This document shows, in pieces, positions 49,423 to 62,603 of a DNA stretch of 64,000 nt (its first letter is position 1; each line of letters opens with the position of its first letter). The notes under the pieces are model-generated. The model worked only from the letters and a program-made list of their open reading frames with translations, was not told where the DNA came from and did no database searches. The position numbers and the translations under genes were made by a program. Source of the stretch: Trueperaceae bacterium (GTDB lineage Bacteria; Deinococcota; Deinococci; Deinococcales; Trueperaceae); contig CBDCDZ010000004.1 of assembly GCA_965215565.1 (NCBI GenBank), positions 4,288,001 to 4,352,000 on the forward strand, read 5' to 3'.

Positions 49423-50388
49423 ATGACCCAGCGAGGCGCGATCACCAAAGCGAGACGTTTAGCGAGCCTACCCGAACTCCTCGAGCGAAAACCGCGCACG
49501 ACCACCGAACTTGCTGAACTTTTTGGCGTTCCGAGGCGTACAGTTCAGCGCGACTTAGAGACGCTGCGTGAGGAAGGCTACGAGATTGACAGCCCTGCGC
49601 GCGGCCTCTACCTCATCCCCTCCAACCCCTCGAGTCTCAACGCCGTCGAAGCGCTCGCCGTCCACGCCGCCACCAGGCTCCTCTACCACCACGCCCCAGC
49701 ACGCAACCCGCACTACCGCTCCGCTTTAGAAAAGCTCGCCTCCTTGCTACCAGAACCGGCGCGAGGCGTCGCGCTGAGCAGCGTAGAGGCGCTGGGTGAG
49801 CGCCCTCCCGACGACAGGGCGCTCGAGCTTGCCGCTCAAGCGTGGTTCGAAGGGCGCGTGCTCGGGTTCGAGTATCTCTCGCCGAGCGGCTCGGGCAAGT
49901 GGCGCGCTAAAGCGCTAGAGATTTATATGATCGAGATCAACCGGGCCAACCTCGCCCCCTACGCCATCGGTTTCGAGCGCAGCTTTCACAAAAGGATACT
50001 CACCTGGAAGCTCTCGCGAATGCGCAACACGCGCCTACTTGGAGACACCTACACCATCCCTCAGAACTTCGATCCGAGGGACTACTTAGAGACCGCTTGG
50101 GGTGTCATCGGCACCAGTGGCGGAGAGACCGTAGCCGTGAAGTTGCGCTTCGCACCCGAGGCCGCTCACCGCTTACGTGAAGGCGGCTACCCGAACATGA
50201 GCATCGAGCGGGAACTAGCCGACGGCGCTTTAGAGGTCTCCATCCAGGCTGGCACGAACGACGAAGGGTTCCCCTTAGAGCTTCTCCCCTGGGTGCAGAG
50301 TTGGGGTCCGCGCGTCGAGGTGCTAGAACCCGCGAACTTGCGCGAACGCTGGTTAGAGGAGGCCCGGCGCGTCGCTGGGGTATACTAG
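49423..50388 (+). CDS. wHTH-WYL-WCX transcriptional regulator (CRISPR-associated)
   Basis: ELAELFGVPRRTVQRDL, WYL core (WKLSRM), WGPRVEVLEPANLR. Confidence 0.88.
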   Translation: MTQRGAITKARRLASLPELLERKPRTTTELAELFGVPRRTVQRDLETLREEGYEIDSPARGLYLIPSNPSSLNAVEALAVHAATRLLYHHAPARNPHYRSALEKLASLLPEPARGVALSSVEALGERPPDDRALELAAQAWFEGRVLGFEYLSPSGSGKWRAKALEIYMIEINRANLAPYAIGFERSFHKRILTWKLSRMRNTRLLGDTYTIPQNFDPRDYLETAWGVIGTSGGETVAVKLRFAPEAAHRLREGGYPNMSIERELADGALEVSIQAGTNDEGFPLELLPWVQSWGPRVEVLEPANLRERWLEEARRVAGVY

Positions 50389-50389
50389 G

Positions 50390-50502
50390 TAGCAGGTATC
50401 ATCTGGTTTGAGACGCTCCCACTTTGAAGAACACGCTCTAGCACGCACGTTCAGAGATGATATCTGCGGCACTTTGTCTCAGTATGTCGTGGAACTGCTG
50501 TA
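50390..50502. repeat. ~110-bp dispersed element, copy E
   Basis: TAGCAGGTATCATCTGGTTTGAGAC..GCACGCAC..AGATGATATCTGC..GTCTCAGTATG..GGAACTGCTGTA. Confidence 0.8.
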
Positions 50503-50587: not shown

Positions 50588-51164
50588 CTATTCCCCACGT
50601 GTGTGGGGATGAACCGCGAGCATCGCCAAACGCAAAGAGTACATCAAACTATTCCCCACGTGTGTGGGGATGAACCCACTGGGCAGAGTTGCCCCGTGAG
50701 ACGTTGCAACTATTCCCCACGTGTGTGGGGATGAACCGCTCGACAAGGCGCGTTCACAGTCGTTAAGAGACTATTCCCCACGTGTGTGGGGATGAACCGA
50801 ACTTAGCCGCGTCGGTCTGCTCGTAAGCGTCCTATTCCCCACGTGTGTGGGGATGAACCGTAACGAGCTGAGCGATTTACTATATTGCATTGCTATTCCC
50901 CACGTGTGTGGGGATGAACCGCTGGCTGTTTCACAGCAAACTAGGATACGCGACTATTCCCCACGTGTGTGGGGATGAACCGCGGCGTGCTGCGCCTGGA
51001 CACCTCGAACGTCACTATTCCCCACGTGTGTGGGGATGAACCGAGGTTTACCTCAAGTTAGCGCAGGTTAGCGAACTATTCCCCGCGTGTGTGGGGATGA
51101 ACCGTATCAGTGGACAACGCTCAGCCAATATATTCCCTATCCCCACGTGTGTGGGGATGAACCG
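50588..51164 (+). CRISPR. type I-E CRISPR array 1: 10 repeats, 9 spacers of 32 nt
   Basis: Repeat CTATTCCCCACGTGTGTGGGGATGAACCG at 61-nt period; repeat 2 ends in C, repeat 9 has A>G, repeat 10 lacks one T. Confidence 0.97.
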
Positions 51165-51247
51165 GGTCATTTCCCATATGGAATTGTCACCCTCTGGGGT
51201 ATAGTAAAGAAGTGTAACACGCACGACACTCACCCAAAGGAGCAACT

Positions 51248-51592
51248 ATGTCCGAACCGACCGCCAACACCAACTTCAGTGACACCGAACGTCGCGCCCT
51301 TATCCTCGAGGGCGCGACGGGTGAAATGAGCAAACGACTCGACGACATTCACGCTGATATTAAAGAGCTGCGTGGCAGCGCCCGCGACGACAACCGTGAG
51401 CTACGCGCTGACATCAAGACAAACGCTGAGGCGACCCAGGCGGCTTTACTCAACGTTCAAACCAACATCATTGACGTACAAAAGAGCGTGATTAGCGTGC
51501 AGAACAGCATTAACCTAATGACGTGGCGACTGCTCGGCGGCGTGTTGCTTCTACTCATCGTCAACGGCATCATTGACCGGGTGTTTTCATGA
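51248..51592 (+). CDS. coiled-coil protein with C-terminal TM helix (between CRISPR repeats)
   Basis: AAAGGAG RBS; heptad-like centre; WRLLGGVLLLLIVNGII tail. Confidence 0.75.
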   Translation: MSEPTANTNFSDTERRALILEGATGEMSKRLDDIHADIKELRGSARDDNRELRADIKTNAEATQAALLNVQTNIIDVQKSVISVQNSINLMTWRLLGGVLLLLIVNGIIDRVFS

Positions 51593-51876
51593 ACGCACCT
51601 AACTCTTCCCCCGCGTCTGCGGCTAGCGGGAGCGTCCACGCGACAGAGGTGAACCCCTTACGCATACGCGAAAAGCTCGGCTTGTCGCAGAGTCAATTTG
51701 CTGAACTACTTAGCGTGAGTAAGAAAACCTTGCAGAATTGGGAGCAGGAGGTCCGCGCCCCATCCGGTCCAGCGCTGTCACTTCTTAAACTCGTTGCCGC
51801 CGACCCGAAACACGCCGCGCGAACGTTAGGCTCCGCAGAATCCGGCTTTGCCGGTTCGTTAGGGGTGAAGCGGTGA
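51589..51876 (+). CDS. XRE/HigA-like HTH protein (between CRISPR repeats)
   Basis: IREKLGLSQSQFAELLSVSKKTLQNWEQ..PSGPALSLL; ATGA overlap. Confidence 0.8.
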   Translation: MNAPNSSPASAASGSVHATEVNPLRIREKLGLSQSQFAELLSVSKKTLQNWEQEVRAPSGPALSLLKLVAADPKHAARTLGSAESGFAGSLGVKR

Positions 51877-51956
51877 AAGGGTTGAGGGCATTTTTAGCAG
51901 CGCTTTTGTGTGTTCTTTTGGGCGCGTGCGGTGAGGTGGACATCGACACAGGTTAG
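51873..51956 (+). pseudogene. lipoprotein signal peptide ORF, truncated
   Basis: GTGA overlap; MKGLRAFLAALLCVLLGAC lipobox, stop 9 codons after Cys inside the first arm of the structured element. Confidence 0.5.
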
Positions 51957-52210
51957 AGCATAGGTTAAGGCTGAAAGCCTCAGCATCTGAGATGCTCACC
52001 TGTGTTCAAAGGCTCTTAGCCTTCACCTGTGCAACCCACTACCGAGGAGTACCGGGCGCTGCTCACAGGTGAATGCTGAGAGCGTCCGGCAGTCGCCGTA
52101 ACCTGTGAGCGCCGCCTTATAGACGGCTACACGCTGCACGACGTGTATCAAGTGACGGCGGGTGAGCAGGTGACGGCTAAGAGCCGAGCTGAGCTTTGCT
52201 CTAACCTGTG
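51947..52210. other. 264-bp nested inverted-repeat element with repeated T(A/C)ACCTGTG motifs
   Basis: Perfect 14-bp outer IR 51947-51960/52197-52210, inner 18/20 IRs, about 8 motif copies in both orientations. Confidence 0.7.
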
Positions 52211-52250
52211 CGAGCAAGACCTCATCGAGCCGGATGGCGTCATCGTGGGC

Positions 52251-52279
52251 CTATTCCCCACGTGTGTGGGGATGAACCG
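52251..52279 (+). CRISPR. isolated perfect array-1 repeat
   Basis: CTATTCCCCACGTGTGTGGGGATGAACCG 29/29, 1,086 bp after repeat 10. Confidence 0.95.
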
Positions 52280-52285
52280 GAGAAA

Positions 52286-52495
52286 ATGATGGATGACATG
52301 AAACCGGTAACGAGCATGGCTGACGTTCCCGACTTCTCTACAGATGAGGAAGAGCAAGCGTTCTGGGCGACGCATTACATCGGCGACGATGTGCTCGTCA
52401 CTCCGCGCGAACTGTCTGACCAGCCGCTTCCTCCCCCGCGTCCACGCAGGGTTGAATCCAAGCGTATCTCGCTCACGCTCGAGCCAAGTGAATGA
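52286..52495 (+). pseudogene. CopG/BrnA-like antitoxin, C-terminally truncated
   Basis: VPDFSTDEEEQAFWATH motif; ends at KRISLTLE, the start of the RHH; GGAG RBS formed partly by the repeat end. Confidence 0.6.
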
Positions 52496-52565
52496 AATAT
52501 CAGCAACGCTGCTGACCTCCCATCGCCATTGACCTCATAATCTAAGGGCGGCAGAAGGCAGCTTC

Positions 52566-53153
52566 TCAAATATCCGCTAGAATTTTCTCAGCTAACTGCT
52601 TGGCAACCTTCTCTTTCGCTTCCTCTTCTCGCCGCGCTTTGTCGTACTTCGCTGCTCTGACCTCGAGCTTCTCGCCCAATATGCGGAGGGCGCGTTCAGG
52701 TTTCATAAAGGGATTGAGCACGAAGCTGTACGTCCGCTTCCGCTGCCGGTCAATGGCTAAAATTTGATAATGTTTTGGACTTAGCAGCGCAGCGAGTTCA
52801 AAGCGTCCCATGCGCTCTGCTGCGATAATCTGCGAGTCTTTGAGCTTGTTCTCTAAGTCCCAACGGCTAAGTTCACGGTCACTACCAAATGTCGGACGCA
52901 TTCCGAGGATATTCCACAAAAAGGGGATGCCGAATGATGCTAGGAAAGAGAGTCCAAGAGAGAGCGGTAAAACACCGACTCTCTGCCAAAATTCGCTACC
53001 CCACACGATAAGCGCAGTGCCAAGGACTGCCGTCGCAATAAACGTATACATTGCCCAGACTGGCAAGTAAGCCTCCCCTCTAATAGCAGCGTTGAACCGC
53101 TTGTGCCACGGTGCTTTGTCTATTAGTAGGTCTCTAAACAATGTATCTGACAT
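52566..53153 (-). CDS. hypothetical 2-TM membrane protein divergent from cas3
   Basis: AGGAGG RBS before ATG 53153; two hydrophobic helices, charged C-terminal helix; lower GC. Confidence 0.7.
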   Translation of the reverse strand: MSDTLFRDLLIDKAPWHKRFNAAIRGEAYLPVWAMYTFIATAVLGTALIVWGSEFWQRVGVLPLSLGLSFLASFGIPFLWNILGMRPTFGSDRELSRWDLENKLKDSQIIAAERMGRFELAALLSPKHYQILAIDRQRKRTYSFVLNPFMKPERALRILGEKLEVRAAKYDKARREEEAKEKVAKQLAEKILADI

Positions 53154-53320: not shown

Positions 53321-56065
53321 ATGCCTAAGTTGAGCCAACGAGCACAGAGCTTCTGGGCGAAGAGCCCTAAAAAAGGTGAGCCGTTCGAGTCCCACCCCGT
53401 TATCGCTCACCTCTTGGACGTAGCCGCGAGTGCGTCCGAAATTCTGAAACTCGAGCCCGAGAAGATAACTGCTCTGTACGCCGGTGACTTCAAGCTGTGC
53501 GAAAGTGAGGCTGCCCTTTGGGTTTGCGCTCTGGCAGGGTTGCATGACCTTGGCAAAGTGAGCCCAGCGTTTCAGCAACTCTGGACTCCGGGGTTGGAGA
53601 AACTTATTTCGGTTGCTCCCGAGTTTGATTGGCATACTACCGACTCGCTTGCCCCTTCGTCCCCACCAGGCTACGTTTCTCACAGTGTAGTCAGCCAGGT
53701 CATACTGCCTAGCTTGCTGAAAGCAAAAGGCTTTCAGGGTACGTTAGCAAAGGGCGTTGCGGACGCTGTCGGCTGTCACCACGGGTTTCGAGCAGATGGT
53801 CAAGAACTCGGTGAGGCGTGTAAAAAGAAAGAGAAGGGACGCGAGGTCTGGGACGACGCGCGTGAAGAGATATTCAGAGCAGTATTAGAGGTCGTTGGCG
53901 TTACGGATAGCCCCGAGGTGAAAAAACTAAGCGCAGCAGGCTTTATGCGCCTTGCGGGTCTAACGAGCTTTGCAGATTGGATCGGCTCGAGCCTCTATCC
54001 CTCACTAAGCTTCGTCGGGTATGAGAATGACCTGGAAGGTTACTACGAAGAGGCGAAGGTGGCAGCGCGACATAGGTTAGCTGAATTGGGTTGGACAAAG
54101 CGTACGCCTCTACACACGGACGCGCGACTACTGGAGGATACCTTCGCTTATCTCACTCGTGAAGAAGGCAAGCCGTTCTCGCCGCGCACGCTCCAGACAG
54201 AAGTCGAGAAGCTGTTGAGGGAGGTCTCCGCGCCAACCCTTCTACTCATCGAAGCGCCGATGGGCGAAGGTAAAACGGAGGCTGCATTCTACGCGCACCT
54301 GCGCCTGCAAACCGAACTCGGTCACAGAGGGATGTACGTGGCGCTGCCCACGATGGCAACCGGAAACGCGATGTTCAGCCGGACGGCTGAGTTCTTGAAC
54401 GAGCAAGCCGAGGGACGGACGGTTCCGCTCGACTTGCAGCTTTTGCACGGGGCGACGCAGCTCAATAGTGTCTATCAAGCGCTTCAGAGCGAAGTGCGTC
54501 CTAACTTTCCCGATGAAGAGAAGCTCGAGCACGTCCAAGCGAGAGAGTTCTTCACGCACAAGAAGCAAGCCCTTCTTTCGGAGTATGGCGTCGGCACGGT
54601 GGACCAGGCGCTACTGACCATTTTGAACATTCGGCATCAGTTCGTGAGGCTGTGGGGTCTCGGCAACCGCGTCGTCATCATCGACGAGGTTCACGCTTAC
54701 GACACCTACACCTCAGAACTCGTGAATGGACTCGTGCGCTGGCTCCACGCACTCGGCTCGAGCGTCGTTTTACTGAGCGCGACCCTCTCCGAGAAATCTC
54801 GTAACGAGTTGCTCGAGGCTTACGGCGGGGAGGCAAAAGAGACCGAAGGCTATCCGCGCATCTTCAAAGTTGCTGCTGGTGAAACCGAAGTCTTTCCGTT
54901 CGACGCCGAATCTAAGCGTAAGGTCGAGATAGCTGTCCATCACCTCGCCGCAGATTTGGACACCATCGTTCGGCTGTTGGAGGATAAGCTCGCAAAAGGT
55001 GGTTGCGCAGTCTGCATTGTCAACACGGTAAACCGGGCGCAAGAGCTTTATAAGAAGCTCGGGGGGAAAGATACGTACCTCTTTCACGCCCGCTATCCTG
55101 CCGAAGAACGCGCTGAGATTGAGACTCATATCTTAGAGACGTTTGGCAAAGCAGCAACGAGGGAGAACGGCAAGCGCCCGCACCGCGCTATCCTTATCGC
55201 CACCCAAGTCGTAGAGCAGTCGCTCGACCTCGACTTCGACCTCATGGTCACAGACTTAGCACCAGTGGACCTCATTATCCAACGGGCAGGGCGCATGTGG
55301 CGGCACGAGCGCCCGTCGTCAGAGCGCCCTATCTCTGAGCCACAGCTCTTCATCGCGGGCATGGAGCATGAGGGAGAGCTGCCGGAGTTGTCACGCTATT
55401 TTTGGGACAGGGTCTATCAGCCTTTTATCCTCTACAAAACCTGGGACGTGCTGCAAGGTAAAACTCAGCTCACGCTGCCCACTGATATTGACGACCTTGT
55501 GCAGCGCGTTTATGACGGTGATAGTGAACCGCTCCAAGCGAGGCTTTCAGAAGAGGCGTTTGAGCAAGCTGAAGAAAATCAGCGCAAGTTCGTGGAGGAG
55601 CGAAAGGCTGATAAAAGCCTCGCACGTGAAGCAATCATCAGTCAGGTGAGGAAGAACGGTGAGCTTGCGCTACGCGACCCGACCAGAGTTAGAGAAGAAG
55701 AGGACAAACCGAATGGACTGCCAGCCGTTTTTACGCGCAAAGGGCAACCCTCAGTGCTCGCCGTTCCCCTCTTTGAGCGCGGCGGTGAATACTTCTTGGA
55801 TGCCGAAGCAAAAAAGCCCTATGACGCTAAAAAGCCGCTCGAGACCTATAAACGCTCCGTCCGCCTGAGCAGGCGCGGGTTTCCTCAAGCACTTGAGAAG
55901 CACAATGCGGCGCAGGGATTTGAAGAGACTTTTAAGCACTGGGAGAAGAACCCGCTTTTGCAAAACTGCGTTCCACTTGTGCTAGATACGGATGGAAGCG
56001 TTGTCGTGGGTCAAACGAGAGTAAGACTGGATAGCGTTTTAGGCGTGGTGTATGAAAGCGCCTAA
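53321..56065 (+). CDS. cas3: Cas3 HD nuclease-helicase
   Basis: HLLDVA, LHDLGKVSP, HHG, ADWIGS, APMGEGKTEA, IDEVHAY, SAT, QRAGR..RH. Confidence 0.96.
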   Translation: MPKLSQRAQSFWAKSPKKGEPFESHPVIAHLLDVAASASEILKLEPEKITALYAGDFKLCESEAALWVCALAGLHDLGKVSPAFQQLWTPGLEKLISVAPEFDWHTTDSLAPSSPPGYVSHSVVSQVILPSLLKAKGFQGTLAKGVADAVGCHHGFRADGQELGEACKKKEKGREVWDDAREEIFRAVLEVVGVTDSPEVKKLSAAGFMRLAGLTSFADWIGSSLYPSLSFVGYENDLEGYYEEAKVAARHRLAELGWTKRTPLHTDARLLEDTFAYLTREEGKPFSPRTLQTEVEKLLREVSAPTLLLIEAPMGEGKTEAAFYAHLRLQTELGHRGMYVALPTMATGNAMFSRTAEFLNEQAEGRTVPLDLQLLHGATQLNSVYQALQSEVRPNFPDEEKLEHVQAREFFTHKKQALLSEYGVGTVDQALLTILNIRHQFVRLWGLGNRVVIIDEVHAYDTYTSELVNGLVRWLHALGSSVVLLSATLSEKSRNELLEAYGGEAKETEGYPRIFKVAAGETEVFPFDAESKRKVEIAVHHLAADLDTIVRLLEDKLAKGGCAVCIVNTVNRAQELYKKLGGKDTYLFHARYPAEERAEIETHILETFGKAATRENGKRPHRAILIATQVVEQSLDLDFDLMVTDLAPVDLIIQRAGRMWRHERPSSERPISEPQLFIAGMEHEGELPELSRYFWDRVYQPFILYKTWDVLQGKTQLTLPTDIDDLVQRVYDGDSEPLQARLSEEAFEQAEENQRKFVEERKADKSLAREAIISQVRKNGELALRDPTRVREEEDKPNGLPAVFTRKGQPSVLAVPLFERGGEYFLDAEAKKPYDAKKPLETYKRSVRLSRRGFPQALEKHNAAQGFEETFKHWEKNPLLQNCVPLVLDTDGSVVVGQTRVRLDSVLGVVYESA

Positions 56066-56087
56066 ATGCTTACTTGTCTATCCTCTG

Positions 56088-56104
56088 GCGTCACTAAATG
56101 ACGC
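56088..56104. promoter_or_regulatory. palindromic operator GCGTCA-N5-TGACGC before cas8e
   Basis: Perfect palindrome in the 58-nt cas3-cas8e gap, followed by CATATT. Confidence 0.6.
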
Positions 56105-56123
56105 TTCACCATATTAAAGTGAG

Positions 56124-57758
56124 TTGAAGGAGGACCAAACATTGGCTACGTTCAACCTCATTACAAAACCTTGTATTCCTGTACGAGTAAATGGAAAACT
56201 CGAGCACTACTCCCTCGAACAAACGCTTTTGGACGCGAAAGACATTGAGCGCATAGAGGACGCCTCTCCTCTCGTTGTAGTCGCGCTGCACCGGCTTCTG
56301 CTCGCCATTCTCTACCGCGCCCTCAACCCTGACAGCACTGAAGAGATTGGGGAGTGGCTCGAGGACGGCTTTCCAGAGGAGGGCATACGCACCTACTTGG
56401 AGAAGTGGAAACCTCACTTCGATTTGTTTGATGCGAAACGCCCTTTTTATCAGGTAGCAGACCTCGAGCAAGCTACCTTCGGCAAGCCGATTGAGCCGAA
56501 AGCCTGGACCGAACTCGCGCCCGAGGTGCGTGACGGCGGTCAGGGGGCGTCGCTCTTCAACCATCTTAACGAAGTTGCAGAGCCGATTCCTGCCGCCACA
56601 GCGTTTCACCAACTGCTCGTCCGTCAGACCTTTGCGCTAGGCGGGCTTAGCAGAACTTTCGTAGATTCGGCGAAGAATGCCCCTTCCCCAAACGCAGTCT
56701 TTCTCATACCACATGGGCAGAATTTACACGAAACACTCTGTTATTGTCTCGACCCTAACAACTACACACACCATGAGGACGACGTGCCATTCTGGGAGCG
56801 CAATACAGCTTATGATGTCGCTTACCTAGAAAGGACAAGAGAAGAGCCGGTTTTAGGCTGTGTTCAAGTGTATACCTGGATGAGCCGCTCAGTGAAGCTC
56901 ATCCCGCTCGAGACGGACGATGGTCCTTATGTTGAGGAAATCTACTTTGCCTCCGGCATCGCGCCGAAGTTCGAAATCGCTCAGTATTTCGACCCGATGG
57001 TTGGAAAGAGAGTTAAGTCCGGTAAAACCGAGAATAGCCTTACCTTTATTCGCTTCGATGGAAATAAGCAATTCTGGCGAGACTTCCAATCGCTATTCGC
57101 TGAACAGCAAACAGGTATAGCACCACGTGTAATTAGCCTATCTGCCCGCCTAGCATCTGAGTTCAACCGTAATGTGAATCTCGGCGTTTACGGCATCAAT
57201 AACAAGCAGGCAAAAGTAAACTTTGCGCGACAAGAAAACCACATTCTTCCCGAGGCTGTTAGCGCTGATAGGACAGAAGATGTTTATGCCACGCTTGCAA
57301 ACTCGCTCACGCAAACGGACAAGCTGGGGTATTCGCTAAGAAAAGCAATCTTTGAAATACATATTCACCTTGACCCCGAGCTTCGGATTAAAGATAAGAA
57401 GAAGCGAGAGGAATTCTGGCGAAAGGTCAACGCTCCACCTCCTCCTAAAGAGAATCCTACGATTACTCGGTTGAGAACGGCAGTGAATACATCCTACGGA
57501 GTTAGTTTTTATTGGTCTACACTGAGCCGTCTCTTTCCAGAGTTATTGGACCAGCTCACCGCTGACTTCAAACCCAAAGAAGTCCAACGTTATTGGGCGC
57601 AGAGACTCCTAGATGCTTCTGACCGCGCCTGGACGCTCGCCCGCGCCGCCGCTGGCGACGACGCCTACGCCCTCCGCGCCATCTACTCTGCCGAAGGCAT
57701 CCTACGCGCCGCGCAGAGCGAGTTTCGCACTCTCACTACATCTCAGGAGGCAGCATGA
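56124..57758 (+). CDS. cas8e: Cascade large subunit Cas8e/Cse1
   Basis: FNLITKPCIPV, ALHRLLLAILYRA, FDLFDAKRPFYQ, YTWMSR, WRDF; position in operon. Confidence 0.9.
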   Translation: MKEDQTLATFNLITKPCIPVRVNGKLEHYSLEQTLLDAKDIERIEDASPLVVVALHRLLLAILYRALNPDSTEEIGEWLEDGFPEEGIRTYLEKWKPHFDLFDAKRPFYQVADLEQATFGKPIEPKAWTELAPEVRDGGQGASLFNHLNEVAEPIPAATAFHQLLVRQTFALGGLSRTFVDSAKNAPSPNAVFLIPHGQNLHETLCYCLDPNNYTHHEDDVPFWERNTAYDVAYLERTREEPVLGCVQVYTWMSRSVKLIPLETDDGPYVEEIYFASGIAPKFEIAQYFDPMVGKRVKSGKTENSLTFIRFDGNKQFWRDFQSLFAEQQTGIAPRVISLSARLASEFNRNVNLGVYGINNKQAKVNFARQENHILPEAVSADRTEDVYATLANSLTQTDKLGYSLRKAIFEIHIHLDPELRIKDKKKREEFWRKVNAPPPPKENPTITRLRTAVNTSYGVSFYWSTLSRLFPELLDQLTADFKPKEVQRYWAQRLLDASDRAWTLARAAAGDDAYALRAIYSAEGILRAAQSEFRTLTTSQEAA

Positions 57759-58299
57759 GCGAGAAGACGGACAGGTTCATCTCTTACTTATGGAAGCTAG
57801 ACCGCAAAGCCTTCGCCGAGCTGCGGCGCAGCCTCAGCGACGAACCGGGGCGCTCTATCCCTGCGATTCCTTACGTAGAGCGCTTCACCCTCGGTGAGCG
57901 CCGCTGGAATCAGCAGATGTACTACTTAGTGGCGGGGCTCTTTTGCCTTGTGGAGCGCCCGCTCGAGCAGAGTGCAACACCGCCCCCACCGCGCCAACAG
58001 AGCTTCGGCAGCAGCGTTGGAAGGCTCTACGTTCTTAAAGAGAAAAGCGCCAGCACCGAACGCCGCTTTATCCGGCTGCTCGACGCCGACGCGGGACAGC
58101 TCGCCGAGCGGCTTCGCCAGATGGTGTCTTTGCTGCGCTCCGAAGGCGTCGAAGTCGGTTGGTCGCGGCTTTTGAACGACCTGCTTTACTGGCACGCCGA
58201 CGACTGCAACATCCAGCACCGCTGGGCTCGAGAGTTTTACATGCAAGAAGCCAAGAGCGAAAGAGCATCCGAAACGGAAGAAGTGACAGGAGGAACCGC

Positions 58300-58303
<4 letters not shown>
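57755..58303 (+). CDS. cse2: Cascade small subunit Cas11/Cse2
   Basis: AELRRSL, STERRFIRLL, WSRLLNDL..W, WAREFY. Confidence 0.9.
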
Positions 58304-59438
<1,135 letters not shown>

Positions 59439-59442
<4 letters not shown>

Positions 59443-60071
59443 CGCACACGCTGTTACTTTGCTTGGCGGGTCCGCTCCAGTCGTGGGGCACGAAGTCCCG
59501 CTTCGACGAACGCGACACCGAACTCGAGCCCTCGAAAAGCGGCGTAATCGGGCTCTTATGTGCGGCGCTCGGCGTTGATCGGCACGAGGCGGAACCCGTT
59601 CTAAAGCTTGCCGAGATGCCGATGGGCGTTCGCGTTGACCGCGAGGGGGTGTTGCAGCGCGACTATCACACTGCTCAGAGAATTGACTATAGCGGTAGGG
59701 TGCGAGATACAGTCGTCTCGCACCGCTACTTCCTTTCGGACGCCGTTTTTCTCGTAGGTTTTGAGAGTGAGGATAGAAGTTTTCTCGCGGAGGTACAAGC
59801 GGCTTTGAAGAATCCACACTGGTCTCTTAGCCTCGGGCGCAAGTCTTTTGTGCCGTCACGCCCGATTTGGTTGTCCGACGGTCTTGTTCAGAAGAGCTTG
59901 GACGATGCCTTATGTCAGTATCCAAATCTCACGAACGAAGAGCCAGTGCGCTTAGTGCTCGAGAGTTCACGCGGCTCACTACGAACAGACCAGCCGCTCT
60001 CGAGCTTTCATGAGCGCCGTTTCGGTACGCGCTATGTTACGAGTGAGCCGTGGAGCCACCCATGTACTTGA
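59439..60071 (+). CDS. cas5: Cas5e/CasD
   Basis: LAGPLQSWG..RF..RDT..PSKSGVIGLL, DYHT, LGRKSF. Confidence 0.95.
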
Positions 60072-60787
60072 GCAAACTCGTCTTAAACCCTCGTGCTCAT
60101 CAAGTACGCCGCGATCTCACCAACCCCTACCAGACCCACGCCAGCCTCTGCTGGGCGTTTCGCAAACCTGAAGCGCTCTCAGAAGCCGAAACTGGAAGCT
60201 GGGAACGCGGCAAAACCGTGTATCCCTTTTTGTGGCGCTTGGAGCCGCCCCAGCCTCGCGCTGCACCAATCCTCTTAGTTCAGAGCGAAGTGGAACCTCA
60301 GTGGGACGTTTTCGCCGAGCGACACCCAAACTACTTTAGCCGAAAGGTCAAGGTAGGTAAGCTTCCCCTCGAGCACCTTGTACAGGGTCAAACCCTGCGC
60401 TTCCGTCTCAAAGCTAACCCGACCGTCACCAAGCGGCACGATGACCAACCCGATAAGCAGAAGCGCGTCGGGCTCTACAAGATGGAGGATTTACTCGGCT
60501 ACCGGAGTGATAACGGCGAATGGATACTTGGCTGGATTGAGCGGCAGAGCGACTTTGGCACAGAGCAGCGCGGCTTCGTGGTCGGCGCACAGGACGTTAT
60601 TTTGCGCAACACCGAGCGCTTGCGTTTTCATAAACATGAAGGAGGTCATCCCATCACCTTGCAGTCCGCGCTCTTCGACGGCTACTTGAAGATTACCGAC
60701 GTAGACCTATTCAAAGAGACGCTCGCTAAGGGCGTCGGCAAAGCCAAAGGGCTCGGCTTCGGTCTCCTCTCGGTTGCGAGAGCCTGA
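60062..60787 (+). CDS. cas6e: Cas6e/Cse3 endoribonuclease
   Basis: MYLSKL, H..L, FRLKANP, GVGKAKGLGFGLL. Confidence 0.93.
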   Translation: MYLSKLVLNPRAHQVRRDLTNPYQTHASLCWAFRKPEALSEAETGSWERGKTVYPFLWRLEPPQPRAAPILLVQSEVEPQWDVFAERHPNYFSRKVKVGKLPLEHLVQGQTLRFRLKANPTVTKRHDDQPDKQKRVGLYKMEDLLGYRSDNGEWILGWIERQSDFGTEQRGFVVGAQDVILRNTERLRFHKHEGGHPITLQSALFDGYLKITDVDLFKETLAKGVGKAKGLGFGLLSVARA

Positions 60788-61770
60788 TGCCCTCCTTACG
60801 CAACCTCCGCGAACTCCCCAAATTCCGCGACGGTCTCTCGTACCTCTACATCGAGCGCGGACGCATCGAGCAAGACGCTAAAGCCATCGCCTGGTACGGC
60901 GAAGAGGGCAAGGTGAGCGTACCCGCCGCCGCGCTGGGCGTCTTGATGCTCGGTCCCGGCACCAGCATCACCCACGAAGCCGTGAAAGCCTTGGCGGATA
61001 ACGGCTGCTTCATCAACTGGGTTGGCGAGGACAGCGTGCGCTTTTACGCGGGCGGCACAGGCGAGACGCGCAGCAGCGCCAACCTCATGCGCCAAGCGGA
61101 GTACTGGGCGGATAGTGGCAAACACCTTCAGGTAGTGCGGCGCATGTATGAGATGCGTTTTGAGGGTGGGTTAGAACCGGGGCTCACCCTCGAGCAGATT
61201 CGCGGCAAAGAGGGCGTGCGGGTGCGCACCATCTACGCCCAGATGAGTAAGGAGACCGGCGTCCCCTGGCACGGGCGCAGCTACAAACGCGGTGCTTGGG
61301 GCAGCGCTGACCCTATCAACCGCGCCCTCTCCGCCGGAGCCGCTTGCGTCTACGGCGTTTGCCACGCCGCTATCGTTTCAGCAGGCTACAGCCCCGCACT
61401 TGGCTTTATCCACACAGGCAAGCAACTCTCCTTCGTCTACGACATCGCCGACCTCTACAAGATGGAGGTGCTCGTACCCGCCGCCTTTAGACTCGTCGCC
61501 GAGTCAGACGAGCACGTAGAGAGCCGCGTTCGGCATCACCTTAGAGACGCCATGCGCGAGGCGCGGATGTTGGAGCGCGTCGTGAGCGACCTGCACAGCC
61601 TTTTCAGCAGCGACGCCGAGAGTAATGAACGCTTTGCCGAGGACGGCGCAGCACCGGGTGAGCTGTGGGACCCGAGCGGCAACGTGGAAGGAGGGGTGAG
61701 CTATGGTGGTGATGACGCTCGAGAAAGTACCGACGAGCCTACGCGGAGAACTGAGCCGCTGGATGGTTGA
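60787..61770 (+). CDS. cas1: Cas1 (type I-E)
   Basis: LGPGTSITH, RGKEGVRVR, GYSPALGFIHTG..SFVYDIADLYK. Confidence 0.96.
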   Translation: MPSLRNLRELPKFRDGLSYLYIERGRIEQDAKAIAWYGEEGKVSVPAAALGVLMLGPGTSITHEAVKALADNGCFINWVGEDSVRFYAGGTGETRSSANLMRQAEYWADSGKHLQVVRRMYEMRFEGGLEPGLTLEQIRGKEGVRVRTIYAQMSKETGVPWHGRSYKRGAWGSADPINRALSAGAACVYGVCHAAIVSAGYSPALGFIHTGKQLSFVYDIADLYKMEVLVPAAFRLVAESDEHVESRVRHHLRDAMREARMLERVVSDLHSLFSSDAESNERFAEDGAAPGELWDPSGNVEGGVSYGGDDARESTDEPTRRTEPLDG

Positions 61771-62056
61771 AGTTTCGACAGGCGTCTACGTCGGCAAACT
61801 GAGCGCTTTGGTGCGCGACCTCTTGTGGGAAAAGGTCACGAAGAGCAAACGCACCGGGCGCTGTTGTCAGGTCTACCGCACCAACACCGAACAAGGGTTT
61901 GCCATTCGCATGGACGGCGACTCGGAAAGGAGTGTCGTTGACCTGGACGGGTTATACTTAGTGGCAGTGAAAAACGCGGCGTGGGAAAAGATGTTTGTTG
62001 AACCTGCCGAGGACCATGACAGACCCGATGGAGACATAGAGGGGTCAAAACGCTAG
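61703..62056 (+). CDS. cas2: Cas2 (type I-E)
   Basis: VPTSLRGELSRWMVEVSTGVYVG..RDLLW, EQGF, VDLDGL. Confidence 0.93.
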   Translation: MVVMTLEKVPTSLRGELSRWMVEVSTGVYVGKLSALVRDLLWEKVTKSKRTGRCCQVYRTNTEQGFAIRMDGDSERSVVDLDGLYLVAVKNAAWEKMFVEPAEDHDRPDGDIEGSKR

Positions 62057-62076: not shown

Positions 62077-62465
62077 CTATTCCCCACAGGCGTGGGGATG
62101 AACCGAACCAATGGTGCGAATAGGCTCAACTATTCCCCACAGGCGTGGGGATGAACCGACACCGTGTGCGAAGAAACGGTGCATGATTTCCTATTCCCCA
62201 CAGGCGTGGGGATGAACCGTATAGACACTCGGACCCAAGCGGCGAAACATGCCCTATTCCCCACAGGCGTGGGGATGAACCGAGATGGATACATCCAACT
62301 GGCACATTCAGGACCTATTCCCCACAGGCGTGGGGATGAACCGCCTCTCTCTTCACCTTCAGTTTTTTGGCTAGCCTATTCCCCACAGGCGTGGGGATGA
62401 ACCGTAGAACTCGTCGATTTGCCCGATGTCCTTGCCCTATTCCCCACAGGCGTGGGGATGAACCG
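62077..62465 (+). CRISPR. type I-E CRISPR array 2: 7 repeats, 6 spacers (24, 32, 34, 32, 32, 32 nt)
   Basis: Repeat CTATTCCCCACAGGCGTGGGGATGAACCG. Confidence 0.97.
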
Positions 62466-62527: not shown

Positions 62528-62603
62528 TGGTGGAGCTGGGGGGATTCGAACCCCCGACCTCGTGAGTGCGATTCACGCGCGCTCCCAACTGCGCCACAGC
62601 CCC
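62528..62603 (-). tRNA. tRNA-Ala(CGC)
   Basis: GGGGCTGTGGCGCAGTTGGGAGCGCGCGTGAATCGCACTCACGAGGTCGGGGGTTCGAATCCCCCCAGCTCCACCA; G3:U70 pair, encoded CCA. Confidence 0.95.

Follow-up and report, generated by a model that had tools for sequence, protein, structure and literature searches.

A gene-sized interval between two repeats of a type I-E CRISPR array in a Trueperaceae genome, and similar inserts at the trailer ends of other arrays

Introduction

The integrase of type I-E CRISPR systems acts as a molecular ruler that fixes new spacers at about 33 bp. We asked how an array of this type came to hold 1,086 bp, with reading frames in it, between two of its repeats. The array lies in a stretch of 64,000 nucleotides (contig CBDCDZ010000004.1 of assembly GCA_965215565.1, a Trueperaceae bacterium, positions 4,288,001 to 4,352,000), which we call the window; coordinates are those of the window unless another genome is named. 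We compared the locus with that of relatives, notably genome G001 of the same genus, and with arrays from a wider survey.

Results

The interval lies within an otherwise ordinary type I-E locus

The locus contains the following features.

49423..50388, plus strand: HTH-WYL-WCX transcription regulator, lying 5' of the leader; G001 has it at 86% identity
50505..50587, plus strand: leader of array 1; its proximal part, including the first repeat, is 89% alike with the array 2 leader
50588..51136, plus strand: repeats 1-9 of array 1 with nine 32-nt spacers
51137..51164, plus strand: repeat 10; 28 nt, lacking one T in its 5' part; hairpin and 8-nt 3' handle retained
51165..52250, no strand assigned: repeat-to-repeat insert; 1,086 bp, 56% GC, present once in the genome except for its dispersed repeats
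52251..52279, plus strand: repeat 11, perfect array-1 type, 29/29
52280..52495, plus strand: probable end of a BrnT-type toxin gene and, overlapping it, a CopG/BrnA-like antitoxin gene (52286-52495; weak PF12441 match, E 0.004)
52566..53153, minus strand: membrane protein, 194 aa, divergent from cas3; conserved in G001
53321..62056, plus strand: complete type I-E operon cas3, cse1, cse2, cas7, cas5, cas6e, cas1, cas2
62077..62465, plus strand: array 2, with seven variant-type repeats; a hairpin and tRNA-Ala (62528-62603, minus strand) come next

The full cas gene set, 29-nt hairpin repeats, 32-nt spacers and a leader identify the system as type I-E. The anatomy given in a preliminary description of this DNA was borne out: repeat 10 is followed by 1,086 bp and then by a 29/29 repeat of the array-1 type. 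The interval thus has a complete repeat on both sides, one of them with a 1-nt deletion, and is not of the canonical spacer length (32-33 nt). Neither its length nor those of the other long inserts described below is a multiple of the 61-bp period. Allowing up to 8 mismatches, we found 18 copies of the repeat in the whole 4.49-Mb genome, all within the CRISPR locus; a single exact copy would be expected by chance only about 5e-11 times.

False joins can arise at repeats, and the preliminary description had named misassembly as a possible cause of the layout. We consider this scarcely credible. The window comes from a contig of 4.39 Mb, G001 has the same layout, and separately assembled Logan contigs of sequencing run X1 (51015-51991 and 51962-52639) span both junctions with 0 differences. 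Because runs X1 and X2 may derive from the window's own sample, the bridging contigs exclude assembler error and do not provide a second strain.

The interval is a decayed patchwork rather than an intact operon

We identified the following features within the interval.

51200..51242, plus strand: TATAGT box (51200) and AAGGAG ribosome-binding site (51237); no consensus -35
51248..51592, plus strand: ORF1, 114 aa, coiled coil and C-terminal hydrophobic helix; intact
51589..51876, plus strand: ORF2, HTH_3 protein of HigA/NadS/MqsA type; HTH_3 domain from residue 25
51873..51956, plus strand: ORF3, lipoprotein-like signal peptide, 27 codons; stop within the repeat cluster
51947..52210, no strand assigned: cluster of palindromic dispersed repeats, four units, 264 bp, 17-nt inverted ends; genus-wide

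The interval had been described as an operon of three coupled ORFs with a TATAGT box, a strong ribosome-binding site and a structured element. The TATAGT and AAGGAG motifs and the ATGA and GTGA overlaps are present, but the box has no -35 partner and is absent from the three sigma-70 promoter matches (1.7 expected by chance). ORF1 is intact, with three other metagenome proteins at 88-93% identity and one more at 56% as homologues; it matched no confident family and no toxin family in Pfam or NCBIfam, an XhlA-like match being a lead only. The other two ORFs look broken. ORF2 is without the N-terminal region of about 40 aa present in its two genomic paralogues, one of which adjoins what appears from its sequence to be a RelE-like toxin gene, and its codons 10-19 overlap a short dispersed repeat module found in both sister genomes too. 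ORF3, for which a homologue search found none, stops within the palindromic cluster, and its frame reopens at 52211-52250, from the end of the cluster to repeat 11. The structured element is real but is a dispersed repeat: two of its unit ends have 20 and 35 copies in the genome and 0 in reversed controls. It had no Rfam match near the gathering score, and because it is this genus-wide repeat we rejected the ideas that it is a new RNA or belongs to foreign cargo. An attC-like reading of the cluster motifs was also dropped; there was no integrase among the scanned genes.

Decay extends past repeat 11. The three codons that follow it are probably the tail of a BrnT toxin gene, judging from 9 nt. 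The CopG/BrnA-like ORF has four paralogues in the genome and is 123 nt shorter than its G001 counterpart, the missing stretch including the DNA-binding part. With ORF2 apparently truncated, ORF3 interrupted by palindromic repeats and brnA shortened, we regard the 'operon' as a decayed patchwork, and a reading of the insert as an intact cargo operon was not supported. The insert has no toxin gene beside its antitoxin-like gene, as a type II toxin-antitoxin operon would, and the cassettes of the window seem spent, their antitoxin-like genes truncated and the toxin gone.

A 280-nt contig of run X4 contains the antitoxin stretch (3 differences in 116 nt) and then, about 135 nt on, a CRISPR repeat, which hints at a second repeat-bounded unit. 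A separate cluster of HigBA-like and BrnTA-like pairs was seen at G000 C4:1477396-1478953; the genus appears to be rich in toxin-antitoxin genes.

Relatives carry unrelated inserts at the same array position

The preliminary description had suggested a search for the source of the interval in plasmids, phages and related genomes, and no source was recovered. Plasmids and phages had no blastn match, the only matches in IMG/VR were two of 23 aa, JGI metagenomes gave none, and the insert was present in 0 of 300 other genomes of the order. Homologues of the insert proteins exist without genomic context. Among the relatives none shared the ends of the interval, at which a rejoined 32-nt spacer would show. 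The earlier statement that the interval has no transposase or evident target duplication holds for its ends, which have no terminal inverted repeats either; those present lie inside it (51947-52210). In the absence of a source, the origin of the window insert is argued by analogy with the cases below.

Comparison with relatives, also suggested earlier, was more informative. The orthologous locus of G001 has no spacers in common with the window. Its order is repeat 13, a 970-bp insert, repeat 14, a 27-nt spacer and a degenerate repeat, then a 5'-truncated HigB gene, HigA and the C-terminal half of brnA. The 970-bp insert occupies the orthologous position and is not homologous to the window insert. 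A phage head-morphogenesis gene (58% identity), cut at codon 1-2, forms its left end; the 3' end of an HU gene lies within about 13 nt of the repeat on the right, and an intact BrnT-CopG (BrnT-BrnA) pair on the minus strand lies in the middle. Among 14 inspected family genomes with such repeats (G110 left out), four (G000, G001, G020 and G054) had non-IS inserts of more than 700 bp. Genome G002 had no repeat match.

Short spacers of unusual size also occur: in the genus 5 of 42 fell outside the 59-63 period (12, 24, 26, 27 and 41 nt), and in the pooled surveys about 50 of 6,479 were off-size among the loci listed. At L013 6217-7100 (G001), the distal repeat adjoins a toxin gene without its 5' part, the antitoxin gene being retained, the same arrangement as in the window.

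Long inserts lie at the trailer end and are enriched for toxin-antitoxin pairs

We surveyed at least 122 loci from GTDB genomes and at least 123 from metagenomes, together with 34 stretches of family f2 and 40 further stretches, mostly of family f4. A search for other repeat-gene-repeat units had been proposed, and it yielded, among the loci listed, ten inserts of about 570-1,310 bp, excluding IS elements and cas genes. Besides those of the window and G001 they are:

G020: 1,062 bp, Xre-RES
G054: 882 bp, DUF4258-DUF2283
L064: 776 bp, YefM-YoeB; array of only two repeats
L117: 933 bp, PIN toxin preceded by a small unclassified gene
L224: 719 bp, nucleotidyltransferase-HepT; pair starts 44 nt after the repeat
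L237: 819 bp, DUF4160-DUF2442
G245: 1,310 bp, Mu-like phage DNA, no toxin-antitoxin pair
G170: 573 bp, Mu-like phage DNA, no toxin-antitoxin pair

We take the DUF4258-DUF2283 and DUF4160-DUF2442 pairs to be toxin-antitoxin modules. Several kinds of gap do not figure among the ten: those in which cas1-cas2 separates arrays (L106, L107, L402), one with a TPR gene ahead of a new leader (L400), IS elements (L187, L401, L408), N-filled gaps and the noisy locus L061. Seven inserts of less than 400 bp (L088, L117a, L156, L157, L237a, L350, G125) were left out as well. The 34 stretches of family f2 had no N-free gap of more than 300 bp.

The last or penultimate gap of the array was the site of all ten long inserts among the loci listed, counting L064, which has two repeats only, G170, which is cut by a contig end, and G054, which is without its leader side. 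Pairs of toxin-antitoxin families were present in 7 of the 10. As a control we used the first kilobase beyond the final repeat in 89 arrays that had no terminal gap (194 ORFs, at most two per strand, so that some may have been missed). Six of these flanks had matches, four of them pairs and two single genes. The difference gave a Fisher p of 1.2e-5; restricted to the four cases that came from the two broad scans (among the loci listed), the test gave 7e-5. Both values are inflated by kinship and by the directed search in the family. We found no similarity among 15 compared gap sequences, which argues that they are not one mobile element.

Smaller inserts of 200-400 bp between repeats were seen at L161 (G125 C1:288315-288746), L156, L157, L088 and L117 1772-2114, mostly near the trailer and several with small genes or fragments. 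In L237 a degenerate repeat lies 32 nt within the gap, and at about 885-1070 (array orientation), beside the toxin-antitoxin insert, three adjoining GA/CT-rich spacers, alike or complementary, sit between degenerate repeats; they could be a regulatory mini-array.

Junctions point to probable integration by Cas1-Cas2

The insert of G245 provides the most direct evidence on mechanism. Its 1,310 bp align over 2-1308 to one phage contig and over 1-516 and 1235-1310 to one prophage. The homology reaches both ends of the insert, leaving no room for a split spacer. The repeat upstream of the insert ends in T, not G, and T occupies that position in 21 of 22 distinct homologous junctions. The last base of a type I-E repeat derives from the protospacer side, according to the relevant part of PMC3338789; the deviant last base of G245 is the phage base, and under that rule it is a signature of type I-E Cas1-Cas2. 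In G170 the corresponding bases are G and G, consistent with the rule. There was no AAG PAM in homologues of the G245 and G170 sources, the two that are testable.

Other junctions were also sharp, being exact to 1-2 nt at both ends in G245, at the left end in G170 and G001, and in G020 and L064. The RES toxin gene of G020 runs to within 1 nt of the repeat and has no stop. In L064 a gene is cut within 2 nt of the repeat; a 29-nt remnant is possible at one end. Searches with the genes that are cut on the right-hand side in G020 and L117 found no homologues. A test based on the last base alone was set aside: G preceded 10 of 14 long inserts and 5,917 of 6,427 ordinary spacers (p 0.02, among the loci listed), and it ended 99 of 130 terminal repeats. 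Because terminal repeats are also often non-G (31/130, against 4/14 for long inserts), this test does not discriminate.

The preliminary description had offered two origins. The second, in which DNA entered an old spacer, can be excluded for G245 and is unlikely for G001. The first, oversized capture, is supported by unrelated kilobase inserts at the same position, genes cut at repeat edges and the end-to-end phage match of G245 with its last-base rule, that is, mainly by relatives.

Could the arrays have been split without Cas1-Cas2, either by illegitimate recombination into an old spacer or because repeat 11 is what remains of a second array that lost its leader side to a deletion, with toxin-antitoxin genes present since they crowd defence regions? 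We regard this as rather unlikely, although several observations fit. Repeat 10 is degenerate, like a terminal repeat, and the non-G bases before long inserts resemble those of terminal repeats. In the 6 of 89 control arrays, too, toxin-antitoxin genes closely follow an ordinary terminal repeat, and behind these genes we found no hidden repeats above shuffled scores. IS insertions occur within arrays (L187, L401 and probably L408), and deletions occur in the region, such as the 123 nt lost from brnA. In contrast, there is no leader before repeat 11, the ends of the interval have none of the marks of transposition listed above, and gene-repeat junctions exact to 1-2 nt are unexpected from random deletion.

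Pieces that include the start of the same Mu-like protease gene were captured independently in two genomes (L398 4544-5853 and L399 gap 3), and the array of G245 terminates in half a repeat joined to a further phage head gene.

Discussion

Probable oversized capture and proposed retention at the trailer

We think it probable that the interval of the window is an oversized spacer acquired by the locus's own type I-E Cas1-Cas2 with normal repeat duplication, and that such inserts persist at the trailer since many carry toxin-antitoxin pairs. By analogy with its relatives, the window insert itself would have arisen by capture. On rare occasions, Cas1-Cas2 would join a long fragment at its two ends to the leader-proximal repeat, a product seen only in G245. 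Normal spacers would then pile up in front of the captured fragment, and repeat-repeat recombination would remove old units. Loss of an active toxin-antitoxin pair would be lethal, so that the cassette and one distal repeat would stay at the trailer. Later the toxin would decay and the cassette erode, which fits the state of the window. We infer that capture is rare and independent of a PAM, and that addiction causes the retention of cassettes. Because the window insert has no recognisable toxin, addiction does not explain its retention today. We found no experiment in the literature showing kilobase integration by the I-E integrase.

A different possibility is that the interval is a domesticated unit, in which read-through of the array and cleavage by Cas6e release a handle-bearing mRNA, as the preliminary description suggested, or a regulatory RNA, by a logic like that of CreTA, and so would link the genes to CRISPR expression. 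We consider this quite improbable. The hairpin and 8-nt handle are kept in both repeats, no plus-strand terminator was called from the leader to repeat 11, the window ORFs are sense to the array, and the L224 pair begins shortly past its repeat; it is therefore possible, going by these features, that the window operon is released as a Cas6e-cut mRNA. However, the cargo is unconserved even in sister species, and two of the three ORFs look broken. For the 32 nt after either repeat there was no PAM-flanked seed match in the locus and no match of at least 17/32 genome-wide. Five of the seven toxin-antitoxin inserts are antisense to the array, which counts against mRNA release as a selected function.

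Relation to known systems

The inserts that we attribute to capture resemble E. coli type I-E acquisition, as described in the part of PMC3338789 concerned, in having full repeats around unrelated foreign DNA and a last base from the source (shown in G245, consistent in G170); they differ in that they measure 570-1,310 bp instead of 32-33, have no AAG PAM at the two testable sources and contain whole genes. Kilobase-scale mobile DNA between repeats has a precedent in locus F of S. solfataricus, where an 899-bp pNOB8-like fragment lies between two repeats (PMC4390879); that is a single archaeal case, and section 4.5 of the paper describes no toxin-antitoxin cargo or positional bias. CRISPR2.2 and CRISPR2.3 of E. 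coli, separated by 0.5 kb (PMC3903273), likewise represent a type I-E array broken by a sub-kilobase segment; they are treated there as two arrays, and the passages on them give neither origin nor gene content of the segment.

Toxin-antitoxin genes have been linked to CRISPR-Cas before. Pairs of vapBC interspersed in cas cassettes were proposed to maintain CRISPR-Cas, in the portion of PMC4390879 that deals with them, whereas here protein type II pairs lie within the array, between near-perfect repeats. CreTA was shown to maintain CRISPR-Cas (PMC9458426); in the account given there it consists of degenerate ectopic repeats and RNA toxins, unlike the protein type II pairs here. In the window, repeat 11 is not degenerate (29/29), and there was no PAM-flanked guide matching a nearby promoter. 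A parallel also exists outside CRISPR. In chromosomal superintegrons, toxin-antitoxin cassettes protect a repeat-delimited array from deletion. Here, in contrast, the scanned genes include no integron integrase, and the boundaries are CRISPR repeats that cut through genes.

Single long inserts are thus already in print, and the combination of toxin-antitoxin cargo with trailer position was not found in the literature searched. In open-access full text we found no description of repeat-bounded spacers that consist of type II toxin-antitoxin operons. Loci of this kind would be split by array callers, and cases have therefore likely been overlooked.

A broader proposal, on which we are evenly divided, is that ordinary complete type I-E systems occasionally integrate kilobase fragments, that type II toxin-antitoxin operons, once captured, anchor the trailer end and possibly the whole locus by addiction, and that arrays also serve as a means of acquiring genes. 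Natural inserts 20-40 times longer than normal, one with an integrase signature, would reveal a leak in the Cas1-Cas2 ruler in standard immune loci, and such a leak would be useful for DNA recording and insertion tools. The bias toward toxin-antitoxin pairs and the trailer suggests a testable explanation of what keeps spacer loss at the old end of an array in check.

Other features of the locus

The WYL-domain regulator immediately 5' of the array leader is kept in G001 and, near an array, in G005. Between this gene and the leader there is a dispersed repeat of about 110 bp (50390-50499) with well over 100 look-alikes in the genome, which is missing at the G001 site. The membrane protein at 52566-53153 matched no Pfam or NCBIfam family. 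It is kept in G001 though cas3 is much more diverged, and may be a cas-linked gene.
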